Below, piece by piece: positions 892-27,974 of a stretch of 44,766 bases of DNA. The position numbers and the translations under genes were made by a program. Each line of letters opens with the position of its first letter. Within the stretch, counting starts at the first letter, position 1. The notes beneath the pieces were generated by a model. The model made no database searches. It worked only from the letters and a program-made list of their open reading frames with translations, and was not told the origin of the DNA. The stretch comes from a virus (taxonomy: Duplodnaviria; Heunggongvirae; Uroviricota; Caudoviricetes). The stretch lies in the IMG/VR virus record IMGVR_UViG_2627854066_000006. One strand, written 5' to 3'.

Positions 892-981
892 GGAGAGATG
901 CCGGAGCGGCTGAACGGACCGGTCTCGAAAACCGGAGTGGGGGCAACTCCACCGGGGGTTCAAATCCCCCTCTCTCCGCCA
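892..981 (+). tRNA. serU: tRNA-Ser, anticodon CGA, long variable arm, 3' CCA encoded
   Basis: GGAGAGATGCCGGAGCGGCTGAACGGACCGGTCTCGAAAACCGGAGTGGGGGCAACTCCACCGGGGGTTCAAATCCCCCTCTCTCCGCCA: acceptor stem pairs with the 3' end, anticodon loop CUCGAAA, class II variable arm. Integrase gene lies immediately 3'. Confidence 0.9.
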
Positions 982-1033: not shown

Positions 1034-2059
1034 TTACTTGGAATATTTTCTTGGAATATTTTCAGGTAACGGGACATCAAGTGTTGGTGAAACTTTAACC
1101 TTCCTGTCATAGATTAGCACTTGCCCTTCGGTTTTGTGACCAGAGAAAAGTTGCTTATCCCGGCTGCTTCCTTCATAGTCTGAAATTCCTTTCGCCTTCA
1201 GATCATGAAAGGTGAAGTCGGTTAAAATACCTGAAATTTTTCCAGCACGATTTCTTGCATCTACCCACATTTCGTTAAAGCCTTTGTACATATATCGGTT
1301 GCCGTATTGATTGCTGATCACATAGGCAGATTTTGGTAACTGTTTTGCTTTTTCGATCGCTGCCTGTAATCGTGGACTCCATGCTTTTATCTGTTTTTTT
1401 CCGGTTTTCCCTTGCTGGATGAATATCCCGTTGTTTCCAATCTGTTCCCATTTCAGCGATAACACATCGGAAACCCTCGCTGCACACAGATAGGCAATTT
1501 CCATTGCGATAAAAACAGGAAGAGGTGCAACGCTTAATACTGCCTGGTATTCTTTGTCGGTTACATATCGTTCGCGGTTTTTGGCCTTGAATTTACTTAC
1601 ACCTGCACATGGGTTAGCCTTCACGTACCCTCGCTCATACCCCCAACTGTAAACACGGGACATACTGCTTTTTTCATGGTTGGCTTGCGTTTTACTCTGC
1701 TCCCCTCTTTTGTCCATGTATCGACGGATGTGTTCTGGTTTTATGGAATCCGCTGGTACCTTACCGAATACGGCAAGCAACTTTTTTTGATGTTGCAGAT
1801 AATCTTTTTGTGTTCTTGGACTAAGGTCACTGTAATAGGCGCTGGCGAGGAATTTTTCCCACAAGCGACCGAATGTCATTGCACGATCGCGATTATTTAC
1901 AGTTTCCTCATACTTTTTCCATAAAGCAGCTAAACCATCCTTGATGGCGGTTAGTGTGACAGATTCTCTGGATGTTGGTTTCCATACATAACTATATTTA
2001 TTTGGGTATACATTTGGAGGTAATTTTTCGTGTTCAGGATTTTTCCTTCGTCTTCCCAT
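1034..2059 (-). CDS. int: Phage tyrosine integrase
   Basis: 341-aa ORF next to the tRNA 3' end; C-terminal region (HDLKAKGISDYEG...QLFSGHKTEGQVLIYDRK) resembles tyrosine recombinase catalytic motifs. Classic tRNA-int arrangement. Confidence 0.85.
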   Translation of the reverse strand: MGRRRKNPEHEKLPPNVYPNKYSYVWKPTSRESVTLTAIKDGLAALWKKYEETVNNRDRAMTFGRLWEKFLASAYYSDLSPRTQKDYLQHQKKLLAVFGKVPADSIKPEHIRRYMDKRGEQSKTQANHEKSSMSRVYSWGYERGYVKANPCAGVSKFKAKNRERYVTDKEYQAVLSVAPLPVFIAMEIAYLCAARVSDVLSLKWEQIGNNGIFIQQGKTGKKQIKAWSPRLQAAIEKAKQLPKSAYVISNQYGNRYMYKGFNEMWVDARNRAGKISGILTDFTFHDLKAKGISDYEGSSRDKQLFSGHKTEGQVLIYDRKVKVSPTLDVPLPENIPRKYSK

Positions 2060-6333: not shown

Positions 6334-6512
6334 GCTGACCTCATTTCCCCTTAACGCCGGGGTAGCGGAACAAAAACCTGCTGCATAGTTATTAAAGTTG
6401 AACCCTGCCGTCATGTTCTTACGCCTCGGGCTGGCTACTTAACCCCTGACCACTGCCTGGTAACTCGAAGTATTGCCCTGCATTCTGTGGGGCGGGGGGG
6501 GGCAGGCATATA

Positions 6513-18062: not shown

Positions 18063-18545
18063 ATGTCAGGACCTCCGAAAACCCCGCCACGCCTGCATTT
18101 GATACGAGGCAACCCCTCAAAGCGCCCCGTTAAAGACCCCAAAAAAACCGCTAAAAAGGATGAAAAAGGTCTTCCTAAAATTCCGCAGCATTTAGGGGCA
18201 CAGGGGAAGTACTGGTTCAGGCGAATGGCGGAAGAGCTGAATGCGGAAGGGATCATTTCTCAGCTTGATGCGCGTGCGCTCGAGTTGCTGGTGGAAGCCT
18301 ACACCGAATATCGGCATCACTGCGAAACACTCGATGTTGAGGGGTATACCTACCGCACGGAAACGCAGAGCGGTGATGTACTGATTAAGGCGCACCCCGC
18401 GGCGGCAATGAAAGCGGATGCCTGGAAGCGGATCCGGGCAATGCTTGCAGAGTTTGGTATGTCACCGGCAAGCCGGGCTAAAGTAAATATCGCCGGACCG
18501 GATGATGTTGATCCGCTGGCGGAGCTTTTAAAAGCGAGAGACTGA
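18063..18545 (+). CDS. Terminase small subunit (P27-family like)
   Basis: 160-aa basic protein directly upstream of, and overlapping by ATGA, the terminase large subunit start. Confidence 0.7.
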   Translation: MSGPPKTPPRLHLIRGNPSKRPVKDPKKTAKKDEKGLPKIPQHLGAQGKYWFRRMAEELNAEGIISQLDARALELLVEAYTEYRHHCETLDVEGYTYRTETQSGDVLIKAHPAAAMKADAWKRIRAMLAEFGMSPASRAKVNIAGPDDVDPLAELLKARD

Positions 18546-20301
18546 TGGCAAAAGTGGCTGACGGGATCCGCTACGCCGAACGTGTTGTTGCAGGAGAAAT
18601 TGTTGCTGGCGAATTTGTCCGCCTGGCCTGCCAGCGTTTTCTTGATGATCTGAAGTACGGCGAAGAGCGGGGGATTTATTTCAGCGAACCCGTGCGCAGC
18701 ACATCCTGAATTTCTACAAATTTGTGCCTCATGTAAAAGGGGCGCTGGCAGGCCAGCCCATTGAGTTGATGGACTGGCATGTATTTATCCTCATTAATAT
18801 TTTTGGTTTTGTCATTCCGCTGGTCAATGAAGAGACCGGGGAAGTTGTCATGCGCAGCGATGGCAGCGGACATCCGGTGATGGTGCGCCGGTTCCGGACG
18901 GCGTACAACGAAGTCGCCCGTAAAAACGCAAAATCAACTCTGTCATCGGGTATCGGCCTGTATATGACGGGGGCAGATGGTGAAGGCGGAGCTGAGGTGT
19001 ATTCAGCCGCAACCACGCGTGACCAGGCCAGAATCGTGTTTGAAGACGCCAAAAATATGGTCAGAAAAGCCCGGTCGACACTCGGGCGGTTGTTTGATTT
19101 CAACAAGCTGGCGATTTACCAGGAGCAGAGCGCATCAAAATTTGAACCGCTTTCTTCGGATGCAAACAACCTGGATGGTCTGAACATCCACTGCGCCATT
19201 ATTGATGAGCTGCATGCACATAAAACCCGTGACGTGTGGGACGTTCTGGAAACGGCAACCGGTGCCCGTCTGCAGTCCCTTTTATTTGGTATCACCACGG
19301 CAGGGTTTAACAAGGAAGGGATTTGTTACGAGCAGCGTGATTACGCCATCAAGGTATTGCGTGGCTATAACAGCGACGTGGAGGGCGCGGTAAAAGACGA
19401 CTCCTACTTTGCGATTATTTACACCCTCGATGAGGGAGATGATCCGTTTGATGAAACGGTCTGGCAGAAAGCGAATCCCGGCCTGGGCATCTGTAAACGC
19501 TGGGATGATCTGCGTCGCCTGGCGAAAAAAGCGAAAGAACAGGTCTCTGCGCGGGTGAATTTTTTTACCAAACACATGAATGTGTGGGTAACAGCAGAGT
19601 CTGCCTGGATGGACATGATTAAGTGGGAGAAGTGCGAATACATTGCCCCACGACATGAGCTGAAAACGTATCCCATGTGGGTCGGCGTTGACCTTGCTCA
19701 TAAGATTGATATCTGTGCGGCGGCAAAACTCTGGCGAACGGATAACGGGCATGTTCATGCCGATTTTAAATTCTGGCTTCCGGAAGGACGGCTGGAACGA
19801 TGCTCGCGGCAGCAGGCAGAACTTTACCGGAAGTGGGCGGAGATGGATAAGCTGATTCTGACGGATGGTGATGTTATCGATCATGCTCAGATAAAAAGTG
19901 ACTTACTGGAATGGATTGGTGGTGAAAACCTCAGGGAACTGGGATTTGACCCGTGGAGCGCGATGCAGTTCAGCTTGGCACTGGCTGAAGAAGGGATACC
20001 GCTGGTGGAGGTTCCGCAGACGGTTCGCAATCTGTCAGAGGCCATGAAGGAAACGGAATCACTGGTCTATGCCGGGCGTTTCCATCACAGCAATCATCCG
20101 GTCATGAACTGGATGATGTCTAACGTTACGGTAAAACCGGACAAAAACGACAATATCTTCCCGAATAAATCCACGCTGGAAGCCAAAATCGACGGCCCTG
20201 TTGCGATGTTTACAGCAATGAGCCGGATGCTGGTCAATGGTGGTGAACCGGAGCTGGATCTGTCTGAACATCTGGTCAGCGTGGGCATCCGCTCGCTTTA
20301 A
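18545..20301 (+). pseudogene. Terminase large subunit interrupted by a -1 frameshift near 18690-18708
   Basis: ATG at 18545 reads MAKVADGIRYAERVVAGEIVAGEFVRLACQRFLDDLKYGEERGIYFSEPVRSTS then stops. The rest of the protein (...AQHILNFYKFVPHVKG..., 525-aa ORF 18724..20301) is in the -1 frame. Confidence 0.7.
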
Positions 20302-20312
20302 CCGAGGTCATT

Positions 20313-20494
20313 ATGTTTCTGATAATTCTCGCGCCACTGGTGGGCATGCTGGGTGCGCTTTTGCTGGCGTATGGTGCCTGGCTGATTTATCCCCGGCGGG
20401 TTTTGTTGTTGCCGGGGTGCTGTGCCTGTTCTGGTCGTGGCTGGTGGCGCGATATCTCGACCGTACACAGCCGTCTGTCGGCGGAGGTAAATAG
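20313..20494 (+). pseudogene. Small two-TM membrane protein gene between terL and portal, apparently frameshifted
   Basis: Frame 1 has RBS GAGGT + ATG and encodes [26 protein letters not shown]...; frame 2 continues ...[32 protein letters not shown] and stops in a TAGTG overlap with the portal start. Frames switch near the run TATCCCCGGCGGG. Confidence 0.3.
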
Positions 20495-21318
20495 TGTTCT
20501 TTTCGGGATTATTTCAACGAAAAAGTGACGCGCCGGTGACCACGCCAGCAGAGCTGGCGGATGCCATCGGGTTGTCTTACGACACCTATACCGGAAAGCA
20601 GATCAGCAGTCAGCGGGCCATGCGACTGACGGCGGTTTTTTCCTGCGTCAGAGTGCTGGCAGAGTCGGTCGGGATGTTGCCCTGCAATCTGTATCACCTG
20701 AACGGCAGCCTGAAACAGAGGGCCACCGGCGAACGTCTGCATAAGCTGATCTCCACGCATCCCAATGGCTATATGACGCCGCAGGAGTTCTGGGAGCTGG
20801 TGGTCACCTGTCTGTGCCTGAGGGGAAACTTTTACGCCTACAAAGTGAAAGCATTTGGCGAAGTGGCTGAACTGCTGCCCGTCGATCCCGGTTGTGTGGT
20901 ACCGAAGCTTAACAGTCGCTGGGAGCCGGTCTATCAGGTCACATTCCCGGACGGTTCCACGGATGTACTGAGCCAGGAAGATATCTGGCATGTGCGCACG
21001 CTGACGCTGGACGGTCTGGTGGGACTGAATCCCATCGCCTATGCCCGCGAGGCAATATCGCTGGCAGCAGCGACCGAAGAGCACGGGGCCAGACTGTTCA
21101 GCAATGGTGCGGTGACGTCCGGTGTGTTGCGTACAGAACAGACGCTGTCGGATCAGGCTTATGAGCGCCTGAAGAAAGATTTTGAGGAGCGTCACACCGG
21201 GCTTGGCAATGCTCACCGCCCGATGATCCTTGAGATGGGGCTGGACTGGAAGTCGATGGCGCTGAACGCCGAGGACAGCCAGTTCCTGGAAACCCGCAAG
21301 TTTCAGCTTGACGTATAG
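20494..21318 (+). pseudogene. Portal protein (HK97 family), N-terminal fragment; gene disrupted by IS91-family insertion
   Basis: GTG start with GGAGG RBS; 274 aa ending ...ETRKFQ then LDV-stop from IS sequence. The C-terminal 143 aa resume at 23017. Confidence 0.75.
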
Positions 21319-21481
21319 GAAATTGAAAAACCAGACGATACCGCTGTCCACGCCTTATGCCACGTGAGCCTTTCTGCTTTTCCCTCCACTCCGGTGGTTT
21401 CTCTCTCTGCATGGTCGATTTTTATACCGTAACAGGCTGTTTTTTATACCTGCACCGATTCCCGGGCACACTTAGCCTGTG

Positions 21482-22690
21482 TCAGGCCGGCATATACCTC
21501 AGCAGACTGATATCCCGCGCGTTTTTCTTCAGCCCTGATACATTCAGCCCCGCAATGGCCCGGCGGTATACCATCCGGCCGCCACACAGCACGCATTCGA
21601 ACGGGTCACGACTCAGGAACTGTTTCACCATTTGTGCATAGCACACTTTCGCCACTGGTTCCGGCTTATCCATCCCCAGAGCACGGTACACCTGCGGCAG
21701 CTTCTCTCCACACACCCGGTTGGCAAGGAACCCGAAGTATCTCACCATCTTAAAAAACTTCTCCGGGATGTGCTGTTTCAGCCTCGCGACCAGCTCCCGC
21801 TGTGTCAGCGTTTCCGTCGCCGTTTCTCCCGTTTTGTGGTCCAGGTAACGGAAGCTCAGACTCGCTCCTCCGTTGTAATGCGCCAGCCGGGAAGCCGCTA
21901 TTGGTGGCTTCTTCAGATAACGACCCAGGTAGCGTGCCGTATTCCGCCCTCCGGCTGTCTTCTTCGACATGTACACATGCCAGTATTTTCCGCCGGCTTT
22001 CAGCACCAGGCTTCTCCACTGTGATTCCGTCGTGATATGTGACAACGATTCCGGCATCGCCAGACCTTCTGACCACGCTTTCAGAAGCAGCTGCCGCATA
22101 TTCCACATCCACCGCGAACGCATCGCGTCTTTCAGGAAGCTCAGCTTTTTCCAGTGTCCGTGTTTATTCAGACCTCCGCAGGTCACTGACACATGCACAT
22201 GCGGATGCCAGTTGAGACGACGGCCATACGTATGGATGGCGCAGAAGATACCGGGTTCCAGACCCCGTTTCCGGGCTGCATACAGCAGATTCTCCACCGC
22301 CAGACGGCACACGTCATTCAGCAGCCAGCGGTTGCTTTCGAACACCGGCCACAGCGTGTCCGGCAGGGTGAAGACCAGGTGCACCCAGTCGCAGTCAGGA
22401 AGACGATTCAGCTGTGTCGCTATCCACAGGTCTGTGGCCTTTTTTCCGCAGGACGGGCAGGCACGGCTGCCACATGAGTTAGTGACGTATCTGACGTGGG
22501 GGCACTCAGGTTTATCGCAGTTGTATTCCTTCACACCCAGTATCCGCGTGCCGCAGGCCAGCATTTTTGTGACAGCCTCAACCTCGATATCGCGCAGGCC
22601 GCCCGCATCCAGGAAGGATGTCCAGCACTGGTTGGCTGTGAACAGGCGTTTCAGCGGTCGGGGCTGAAAATCACCACCACTTCGGGTCAT
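21482..22690 (-). CDS. tnpA: IS91-family transposase
   Basis: 402 aa with N-terminal zinc-binding cysteines (CDKPECPHVRY...CGSRACPSCGKK) and HUH motif region HTYGRRLNWHPHVHV. Confidence 0.75.
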   Translation of the reverse strand: MTRSGGDFQPRPLKRLFTANQCWTSFLDAGGLRDIEVEAVTKMLACGTRILGVKEYNCDKPECPHVRYVTNSCGSRACPSCGKKATDLWIATQLNRLPDCDWVHLVFTLPDTLWPVFESNRWLLNDVCRLAVENLLYAARKRGLEPGIFCAIHTYGRRLNWHPHVHVSVTCGGLNKHGHWKKLSFLKDAMRSRWMWNMRQLLLKAWSEGLAMPESLSHITTESQWRSLVLKAGGKYWHVYMSKKTAGGRNTARYLGRYLKKPPIAASRLAHYNGGASLSFRYLDHKTGETATETLTQRELVARLKQHIPEKFFKMVRYFGFLANRVCGEKLPQVYRALGMDKPEPVAKVCYAQMVKQFLSRDPFECVLCGGRMVYRRAIAGLNVSGLKKNARDISLLRYMPA

Positions 22691-22943
22691 CCGCCTTCAT
22701 CTCCGCTTCAGTTTCGTATAAATCAAAACGACGGCAGGTATGGCAGAACGTGACGTATTCGTACGGTGAATCCGGGTACATTTTGTGGAAGGTTTCCCAG
22801 AAACAGACCGTACAGGAGGGATGACCGGCGATAAAGTCTGTAAATACAGACTGATAAGGGTGATTATTGGCCCTGGCGACGGCTTTCAGAACCTCTTTCA
22901 CCATTCTGGTGTGGACTTTCTGGTGCTCCAGGTTGTGTGACAT
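22671..22943 (-). CDS. IS91-family small accessory ORF upstream of tnpA
   Basis: 90-aa ORF overlapping the tnpA start, as in IS91-type elements. Confidence 0.5.
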   Translation of the reverse strand: MSHNLEHQKVHTRMVKEVLKAVARANNHPYQSVFTDFIAGHPSCTVCFWETFHKMYPDSPYEYVTFCHTCRRFDLYETEAEMKADDPKWW

Positions 22944-23016
22944 GGGAACTCATTCTGGATGGTTACTCTGAAAGCTCATATTCTGCCACACCACGATTTG
23001 CAGCCGCCAGGCTGCC

Positions 23017-23448
23017 GTGGTTCAAGAAATCTGTCGTCTGTTCCGGGTGCCGTTGCACATGGTGCAGAACACCGATCGCGCCACCTTCAACAATATCGAA
23101 GAGCTGGGGTTGGGATTTATCAACTATTCACTGGTGCCGTATCTGACCCGCATCGAACAGCGGATCAACACCGGACTGGTACGAAAAAGTAAGCAGGGCG
23201 TTTATTACGCCAAATTTAACGCCGGGGCGTTACTGCGCGGGGATATGAAGTCCCGTTTTGAAGCCTACGCCACCGGGATCAACTGGGGAATTTACTCTCC
23301 CAATGACTGCCGCGACCTGGAAGATATGAATCCGCGTCCCGGTGGTGATGTCTATCTCACACCGATGAACATGACCACGAAACCCTCCGATGGCAGTAAA
23401 GCCGGTAAGCAGAAGGATAACGCCAATGCAGACGAAACAACGTCTTGA
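23017..23448 (+). pseudogene. Portal protein, C-terminal fragment
   Basis: Resumes VQEICRLFRVPLHMVQNTDRATFNNIEELGLGF...; in line with the N-fragment if the IS is removed. Confidence 0.7.
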
Positions 23449-27046: not shown

Positions 27047-27096
27047 ATGTCCTCTAATTTTGAGCGTTCGCAACTGACGAAAATTATGATTTCGTC
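27047..27096 (+). pseudogene. Major tail protein, 5' fragment (first 16 codons) cut off by IS66-family insertion
   Basis: AGGAG RBS then ATG; MSSNFERSQLTKIMISS... runs straight into the IS left inverted repeat. Confidence 0.7.
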
Positions 27097-27177
27097 GTAA
27101 GCGTCGTCTCAGCACCGTCTGGCAGATCCTGAAATTCCTGAGAGAATAGTGGACACCAAATATGGTGGACGCTATCC

Positions 27178-27582
27178 ATGAAATCATTAACCGCAGTGCG
27201 TAAAAAAAGCCCTAATTATCCCGTTGAGTTCAAAATCAAAATGGTTGAACTCTCGCATCGACCAGAGATCTCCGTAGCGCAACTCGCTCGTGAGCATGGG
27301 ATCAACGATAATTTGCTGTTCAAGTGGCGCCAGTACTGGCGCGAAGGAAAACTACGTCCTCCTTCAACAACAGAAAACAACGTGCCTGAGCTGCTCCCGA
27401 TAACACTTGATGCCGAAGATGTTGTCCCTACAACCTCCCCCCGGTCACAACCTGTAGCTACTGCGACACCTGAATCACTCAATATCAGCTGTGAAGTGAC
27501 GTTCCGGCACGGATCACTCCGTCTGAATGGTGCCATCAGTGAAAATATCCTGAACCTGCTGATACGGGAGCTCAAACGTTGA
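27178..27582 (+). CDS. IS66-family accessory protein TnpA (orf1)
   Basis: 134 aa, first gene of the three-gene IS66 arrangement. Confidence 0.75.
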   Translation: MKSLTAVRKKSPNYPVEFKIKMVELSHRPEISVAQLAREHGINDNLLFKWRQYWREGKLRPPSTTENNVPELLPITLDAEDVVPTTSPRSQPVATATPESLNISCEVTFRHGSLRLNGAISENILNLLIRELKR

Positions 27583-27926
27583 TCCCATTACCATCAGGGA
27601 CAAAGATCTGGCTGGTCGCTGGCATCACCGATATGAGAAACGGCTTCAACGGCCTGGCGGCAAAGGTGCAGACGACGCTGAAAGACGATCCGATGTCAGG
27701 TCACGTTTTTATCTTCCGTGGGCGTAATGGCAGTCAGGTAAAGCTCCTCTGGTCTACCGGCGATGGACTGTGTCTGCTGACCAAACGGCTGGAGCGCGGC
27801 CGCTTCGCCTGGCCGTCAGCCCGGGATGGCAAAGTGTTCCTCACACCGGCACAGCTGGCGATGCTGCTGGAAGGTATCGACTGGCGGCAGCCTAAAAGAC
27901 TGCTTACGTCCCTGACTATGTTGTAA
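27579..27926 (+). CDS. IS66-family accessory protein TnpB (orf2)
   Basis: 115 aa, overlapping orf1 by 4 bp; MIPLPSGTKIWLVAGITDMRNGFNGLA is typical of IS66 orf2. Confidence 0.75.
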   Translation: MIPLPSGTKIWLVAGITDMRNGFNGLAAKVQTTLKDDPMSGHVFIFRGRNGSQVKLLWSTGDGLCLLTKRLERGRFAWPSARDGKVFLTPAQLAMLLEGIDWRQPKRLLTSLTML

Positions 27927-27974
27927 GCCTCTTTATCCTGGTCGACGCTGAATGAGCCTGGTAATATACCCGGT

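Follow-up and report, generated by a model that had tools for sequence, protein, structure and literature searches.

A portal gene of the HK97 type lies in two pieces in the 44,766-nucleotide stretch of viral DNA analysed here (IMG/VR record IMGVR_UViG_2627854066_000006, hereafter the window), which raises the questions of what separates the pieces, where exactly the intervening DNA begins and ends, and how it came to be there. The upstream open reading frame (20494..21318, plus strand) matches positions 2-224 of the Pfam family Phage_portal (PF04860) as well as TIGR01537. The downstream frame (23017..23448, plus strand) matches Phage_portal positions 224-321, and the two fragments together make up the whole portal profile once, in a single frame. 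The gene is interrupted by an element of the IS91 family, 1713 bp long, with its transposase encoded on the minus strand.

Two joins of the fragments keep both the frame and the length of the portal gene: removal of 21307..23019, which leaves GTTC at the junction, and removal of 21311..23023, which leaves CTTG. Under the first join the element would start with a fixed CTTG and would have been inserted 5' of a GTTC target on its right-hand side, which is upstream of tnpA. This arrangement maintains the frame, yields a gene of 1242 nt, and aligns with the intact portals of 1095 E. coli genomes as one ungapped piece, the best match being 99.7%; GTTC is, moreover, a known target of the IS91 family. 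However, this join produces two mismatches to the intact gene, located exactly at the C/G positions of the tetranucleotide, whereas the other join produces none. Upon excision of 21311..23023 in silico, the resulting gene of 1242 nt was found to be identical at 1242 of 1242 positions to the gene of WP_000466247.1, and the reconstructed protein of 413 residues is identical to WP_000466247.1. The intact portal gene of E. coli SCU-115 reads TTTCAGCTTGAAGAAATC across the site. All four intact loci that were fetched carry the CTTG allele and none (0/4) carries GTTC.

The same distinction is made by other copies of the element. These were compared at 13 independent other sites, in E. coli, Shigella, Acinetobacter and a Lachnospiraceae MAG. 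All 13 start with ACGTATAGG, and every copy with a captured ter end finishes with GCCGTGGTTC, followed by unrelated flanks. The four nucleotides ahead of the initial ACG vary among the copies (GTTC, n=8; CTTG, n=3; GTAC, n=1), while the GTTC past GCCGTG is constant. In one plasmid-borne case (L016) two copies are arranged head to tail, and the GTTC of one copy is the target of the next. GTTC has also been placed at the ter end in the literature, where it "matched the last 4-bp of terIS of IS1294" (PMC5043248). The assignment of the element to 21307..23019 is thus extremely improbable.

Because the starts and ends are fixed in the other copies and the four preceding nucleotides vary, the insertion sequence is assigned to 21311..23023, with its genes on the minus strand. 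The target tetranucleotide, 5'-CTTG, occupies 21307..21310 (plus strand), consists of native portal bases and abuts the oriIS end. The terminal 5'-GTTC at 23020..23023 (plus strand) is the cleavage tetranucleotide of terIS, constant in all copies, with variable flanks beyond it. The plus strand around the insert accordingly reads ...AAGTTTCAG CTTG ACGTATAGG......GCCGTG GTTC AAGAAATC... The 5' part of the portal gene, native through CTTG (20494..21310, plus strand), is identical to the intact gene in SCU-115. The 3' part (23024..23448, plus strand; Phage_portal positions 224-321) resumes at 23024 with AAGAAATC and is likewise identical to the intact gene. A target site duplication is absent, since excision of 21311..23023 leaves no extra or missing portal base.

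The original prediction had already recognized a portal gene split by an element that makes no target duplication, and both points are borne out, the split by the profile matches of the fragments and by the rebuilt gene (1242/1242), the lack of a duplication by a rebuilt portal that neither gained nor lost a base. Alignment to an intact portal, proposed there as a check, confirms a clean single insertion whose flanks rejoin in one continuous frame. It was also foreseen that the exact ends would need alignment, and alignment did shift them: the ends first given, 21310-23019, were off by 1-4 nt from those fixed by exact restoration of the portal. The GTTC on the right had been taken for the target, and is rather the last 4 bp of terIS. 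Similarly, the portal had been described as stopping after ...ETRKFQ and resuming at VQEICRLFRV. The interruption is real, but the "VQ" (GTT CA.) is built mostly from the terminal GTTC of the element, and the intact protein reads ETRKFQLEEICRLF (KFQLEEICRLF), not KFQVQEICRLF. The locus provides a worked example for annotation: the ends of IS91-family elements are easily misplaced by 4 bp, because the target and terminal tetranucleotides are alike and both joins are in frame.

The element has two unlike ends, a terIS with a subterminal hairpin and an oriIS situated downstream of tnpA, and its plus strand reads 5'-oriIS...terIS-3'. The oriIS terminus, ACGTATAGGAAATTGAAAAACC (21311..21332, plus strand), contains a motif common to the relatives. 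On the tnpA-sense strand this end reads ...TTTCAATTTCCTATACGT, and the motif AAWTTCCTAnnCGT is found in IS91 and three other relatives, in which it is followed by CAAG, GAAC or CGAG (CTTG, GTTC or CTCG on the transferred strand). The imperfect hairpin of terIS (22990..23021, plus strand) has the arrangement ACCACG-ATTT-GCAGCC-GCCA-GGCTGC-CGTGGT. It folds as DNA with -14.3 kcal/mol (z -2.26), and its stem finishes 2 nt short of the element end. The hairpin core GCAGCC..GGCTGC is kept in IS91, in the shorter variant B described below and in the related elements L018-L020. On the tnpA-sense strand of the relatives, GAAC (CGAG in IS91) stands ahead of the core, with unrelated flank beyond. At the ori end, repeat scanning and folding revealed no convincing hairpin, and there is no inverted-repeat pair within either of the terminal regions scanned (21290-21490 and 22930-23040). 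A promoter scan of the element found no sigma-70 consensus promoter and is uninformative.

This architecture conforms to that published for the IS91 family, in which the target tetranucleotide adjoins oriIS and the inserted strand is antisense to tnpA (PMC13181058). The cleavage tetranucleotide of terIS is GTTC in IS801, IS1294 and IS1294b, and CTCG in IS91 (PMC13181058). The insertion in the window agrees with this description in having its target beside oriIS, a GTTC cleavage site at terIS and an insertion of the bottom strand.

The transposase gene tnpA (21482..22690, minus strand) encodes a Y2 HUH transposase of 402 residues, and its coordinates and length match those of WP_000198533.1 as annotated in copies that have 0/1713 mismatches to the element. 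The protein contains the motifs HPHVH at residues 162-166 and YLGRY at residues 254-258, which fit the HUH motif and the pair of catalytic tyrosines that are typical of Y2 transposases. It matches the Pfam families Y2_Tnp (PF04986, 2.8e-57) and, at the N terminus, the zinc-binding Zn_Tnp_IS91 (PF14319, 2.1e-22). Its score against the NCBIfam model NF033538, "IS91 family transposase", is 311.9 bits, the cut-off being 125, which places its homology in the IS91 family and in no other IS family. A second open reading frame of 90 codons (22671..22943, minus strand; WP_000019163.1) precedes tnpA and overlaps its start by 20 nt. The early description of an IS91-type HUH transposase accompanied by a small ORF on the opposite strand is therefore upheld by these matches and by the minus-strand frames.

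The affiliation of the element within the family follows from its plasmid copies. Of 5426 complete E. coli genomes, 138 contain full-length copies, defined as those covering at least 80% of a junction-spanning query; these copies are spread over 213 records and are located mainly on plasmids. Plasmid copies L012, L013 and L015-L017 differ from the element at 0 of 1713 positions. Two members of the family are relevant here, IS1294b (Yassine et al., cited in PMC5043248 and PMC13181058) and IS1294 (Tavakoli et al. 2000). Strain 746 has an identical copy on plasmid p95, with an ISEcp1 remnant and then blaCMY-2-blc-sugE coming after it; exactly 372 bp lie between the element's end and that of the ISEcp1 IRR. 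The published structure is [quoted passage not shown] (PMC5043248). Because an identical copy sits in this published 372-bp ΔISEcp1-blaCMY-2 context, the element in the window appears to be IS1294b, a name given here by the blaCMY-2 context and by a TnpA identity of 97% to a sister variant, not by an ISfinder reference. IS1294b has the same terIS ending in GTTC and, like the window element, neither inverted repeats nor a target duplication, and no difference was detected in the element itself. The target of IS1294b is listed as 5'-GTCC (PMC13181058), whereas the target in the window is CTTG and other copies have GTTC, CTTG or GTAC. The element is already known; the novelty is limited to the site of insertion in a prophage portal gene, and that site is unremarkable.

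The sister variant, variant B (L021), is 1688 bp long and is probably IS1294 proper. It shares with the window element the 28 nt of the terIS end, the ori end and the target rule, and the two elements are 94.5% identical over 1353 nt, from tnpA codon 10 to the oriIS end. However, the stretch from the ter hairpin to tnpA codon 10, which is 332 nt long in the window element, is replaced in variant B by 307 unrelated nucleotides, and the 90-aa ORF is missing. The window-type element looks like a mosaic with an L018-like element.

The window element also resembles IS91. Both have a Y2 HUH transposase with a zinc-binding N terminus, an oriIS/terIS architecture, CTTG/GTTC targets and the same gene order, in which a small ORF lies upstream of tnpA and overlaps it; the 17-nt hairpin core GGCAGCCTGGCGGCTGC is identical in the two. 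Nevertheless, there is hardly any chance that the element is IS91 itself or an isoform carrying orf121. IS91 proper is characterized by a TnpA at least 95% identical to CAD30457.1 and by an orf121 with a 1-nt stop/start overlap (PMC13181058). The TnpA of the window element is 34% identical to IS91 TnpA, the latter being taken from an element annotated as "IS91-like element IS91 family transposase" with a 121-aa upstream ORF. The 90-aa ORF has no detectable homology to Orf121 (BLASTP E 0.038 over 48 residues; hhalign probability 0.7%), and it overlaps tnpA by 20 nt, not by the single nucleotide of an ATGA overlap. Finally, the ter tetranucleotide is GTTC and not the CTCG of IS91 (PMC13181058).

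A unit-length copy of this IS1294b-type element was, very probably, inserted by rolling-circle transposition directly 3' of CTTG in the portal gene of an E. coli prophage, as judged from the junctions and the related copies. The recipient would be a lambdoid prophage whose head is of the HK97 type and which is integrated beside mtfA, at tRNA-Ser, in an E. coli chromosome. The transferred strand would be the plus strand of the window, 5'-CTTG/ACGTATAGG...GCCGTGGTTC/-3' (slashes mark the junctions). Its oriIS end would have been joined to the CTTG of the target, and the element would close with its own terIS hairpin and GTTC, the outcome being neither a target duplication nor a deletion. Knowledge of the family suggests that cleavage and joining would be carried out by the Y2 HUH transposase, and that the inserted copy may have come from a plasmid. 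The head-to-tail tandem in L016 is compatible with rolling-circle transposition by way of a single-stranded circle.

Termination at terIS is missed by IS1294 and IS1294b in 1-14% of events (PMC13181058), and for that reason one might consider a one-ended product, in which foreign DNA arrived together with the IS. It can be virtually dismissed, as the insert is exactly 1713 bp long and identical to unit-length copies, and the host sequence restarts directly past GTTC. The same frequency of missed termination makes it possible that the present copy could mobilize the DNA on its right, namely the 3' end of the portal gene and the protease and capsid genes, by reading through terIS.

The window starts in mtfA and the tRNA-Ser gene (892-981) and continues into the lambdoid prophage, which has dicB/ydfC-type early genes, a small terminase of the P27 family, an HK97-type head and a lambda-like tail. 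In two E. coli strains from poultry, E7 and GPEC1258, the chromosome contains this prophage (identity about 100%) with both flanks of the insertion contiguous and the site empty. The flanks meet between positions 2802524 and 2802525 of the E7 record, and do so likewise in GPEC1258. Because these strains carry virtually the same prophage with an empty site, the insertion must be very recent. Plasmid p1258b of GPEC1258 carries a copy identical to the element, and a hop from plasmid to chromosome is plausible. The locus would thus represent a very recent transposition into the chromosome of a plasmid-associated IS that mobilizes resistance genes.

The exact junction was absent from viral and metagenome contigs in a search with a 31-nt exact pattern, and it was not found among the 5426 complete E. 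coli genomes, where coverage of the junction-spanning query never exceeded 94%. Comparison with E7 over 43 kb showed nine substitutions and, in the window, seven single-base deletions; the latter are in homopolymers and mark the assembly as error-prone in a manner typical of long reads. Together, the lack of a second occurrence and the quality of the assembly could be taken to mean that a plasmid-borne copy of the IS was misplaced into the prophage by the assembler. However, an insert of 1713 bp with canonical junctions is beyond what homopolymer-type errors can produce. The two junctions conform exactly to the canonical form, with the insert located 3' of CTTG, of unit length and flanked by intact host bases, which is unexpected of a misjoin. 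Such an artefact is very unlikely, and a genuine transposition is the preferred interpretation. A frameshift in terL at 18689 was considered as a second lesion of the prophage and was downgraded, being a probable homopolymer sequencing error.

In the interrupted gene, the truncated portal ORF runs through two element-encoded codons (D and V) past 21310 and reaches a stop at 21316-21318. The portal protein would therefore be truncated after residue 272 and end in two foreign residues, and its function, and hence capsid assembly, would be lost. Without a portal, the prophage would presumably be unable to assemble DNA-filled heads. Precise loss of the element could possibly restore the portal gene, because the insertion neither gained nor lost bases. 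Reactivation of mcr-1 together with loss of IS1294b has been reported (Zhou et al. 2018, cited in PMC6694793).

The prophage was already defective before the insertion of IS1294b. A tail gene that APEC 102026 has in intact form is interrupted, roughly 16 codons from its start, by an ISEc22 of 2454 bp flanked by an 8-bp duplication, ATTTCGTC; the window and E7 have this lesion in common. The insertion into the portal gene is a further inactivating hit on a decaying prophage, and an ordinary event. The integrase is annotated as frameshifted in E7.

The 90-aa ORF of the element is a side result that may be new, and it is the sole part of this analysis with wider interest. IS91 is said to be unique in its family in carrying an extra ORF (PMC13181058), a statement that is qualified by the present observation. 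In all annotated copies inspected, RefSeq labels the product of the ORF "hypothetical protein" (WP_000019163.1), and a search of Pfam and NCBIfam gave no match, PHROG giving only sub-threshold ones. Three diverged elements, whose TnpA is 53-57% identical to that of the window element, have a homologue of 77-90 residues in the same place, overlapping the tnpA start by 17-20 nt. These homologues are 60-71% identical in amino acid sequence, with a dN/dS of 0.11-0.18. The ORF is, by this comparative measure, a real gene under purifying selection. An AF2 model of the protein consists of four helices (pLDDT 78), and comparison of the model with the PDB gave no significant fold match.

A profile search of 1.84 billion representatives retrieved 110 proteins of the family, about 80 residues long, with E ≤ 1e-3. 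The pattern FW...YP...CxxCxxFxL is conserved among them, and none is assigned to a Pfam family. The genomic contexts come from a small sample of seven distant members with informative contigs. In three of these the gene directly follows that of a Rep_1 (PF01446) rolling-circle initiator, with overlap of the rep stop in two cases, and in one of the three an IS91-type tnpA is also present 207 nt downstream (L034). Another distant member is 0.5 kb from a Rep_1 gene, and two have no HUH gene nearby on their contigs. The contexts suggest, within the limits of this sample, that the family consists of accessory proteins tied to HUH rolling-circle enzymes.

In rolling-circle plasmids of the Rep_1 (pUB110/pC194) type, members of the family adjoin the initiator as the 90-aa ORF adjoins tnpA here. 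However, such plasmids are replicons and not insertion sequences, and in them the ORF comes after rep and not before tnpA. We consider it possible, though with somewhat less than even confidence, that the 90-aa ORF encodes a functional accessory protein belonging to an undescribed helical family of about 80 residues, marked by FW...YP...CxxCxxFxL, which partners HUH rolling-circle enzymes. If the ORF, like Orf121 in IS91, does modulate initiation or termination, an accessory gene would not be confined to IS91, and the shared partner would be a remnant of the descent of IS91-family elements from plasmids. The Rep_1-associated members sit on small contigs of about 2.7-6 kb, and three of the contigs with family members have terminal overlaps, suggesting circles of about 2.7-3.1 kb.

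The IS1294b type of element is, as judged by sequence comparison, a mosaic relative to its 1688-bp sister variant (L021, taken to be IS1294). The 332-nt ter-proximal segment (window 22664..22995; element positions 29-360 in the tnpA sense), which comprises the 90-aa ORF and the first nine codons of tnpA, has no relation to that variant. The motif AAATCGnnGTGTGGCAGAAT, situated directly past the hairpin in the IS1294b type, is shared with more distant elements, and in those compared (L018-L020) the corresponding ORF is 60-71% identical to the 90-aa ORF.

The 90-aa ORF (window 22671..22943, minus strand) belongs to an unannotated family of proteins of about 80 aa, having 110 representatives. The loci concerned are L026, L027, L031, L032 and L034. 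Distant members are found on small, apparently circular contigs, where they adjoin Rep_1 rolling-circle initiators. In locus L034, the family member has a Rep_1 gene on one side and, on the other, a tnpA of the IS91 type.

Two loci carry head-to-tail tandems, formed by IS1294b copies in plasmid p72 of E. coli 746 (L016) and by IS91 copies in a plasmid of E. coli W25K (L022). In both, the ter tetranucleotide of one copy directly joins the ori end of the next.

A second insertion sequence, the 2454-bp ISEc22 (IS66 family, encoding tnpA, tnpB and a transposase), occupies window 27097..29550 and is flanked by the 8-bp target duplication ATTTCGTC at 27089-27096 and 29551-29558. It interrupts, about 16 codons inside, the gene for a 234-aa tail protein, which is uninterrupted in APEC 102026. 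The same insertion is present in E. coli E7, a poultry strain carrying this prophage with an empty portal site. The portal insertion thus struck a prophage that was already defective.

Compared to E7, the window has seven single-base deletions, at 6494 (two bases), 12475, 18689, 20391, 30721 and 30749, every one of them within a run of G or C. The deletion at 18689 breaks the large terminase gene, terL, into 18545..18709 and 18724..20301; the gene is unbroken in E7, GPEC1258 and SCU-115. The confinement of all seven deletions to G or C runs suggests that they arose as homopolymer errors in long reads and are not genuine frameshifts.

The prophage integrase gene (window 1034..2059, minus strand) adjoins tRNA-Ser(cga) (892..981); its counterpart in E7 carries a frameshift annotation. 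In the GPEC1258 chromosome (L024, record 193206-194129), which comes from another poultry strain, IS903B lies beside the small terminase gene of an otherwise identical prophage. Because this insertion is missing from the window, the latter is not a direct descendant of GPEC1258.
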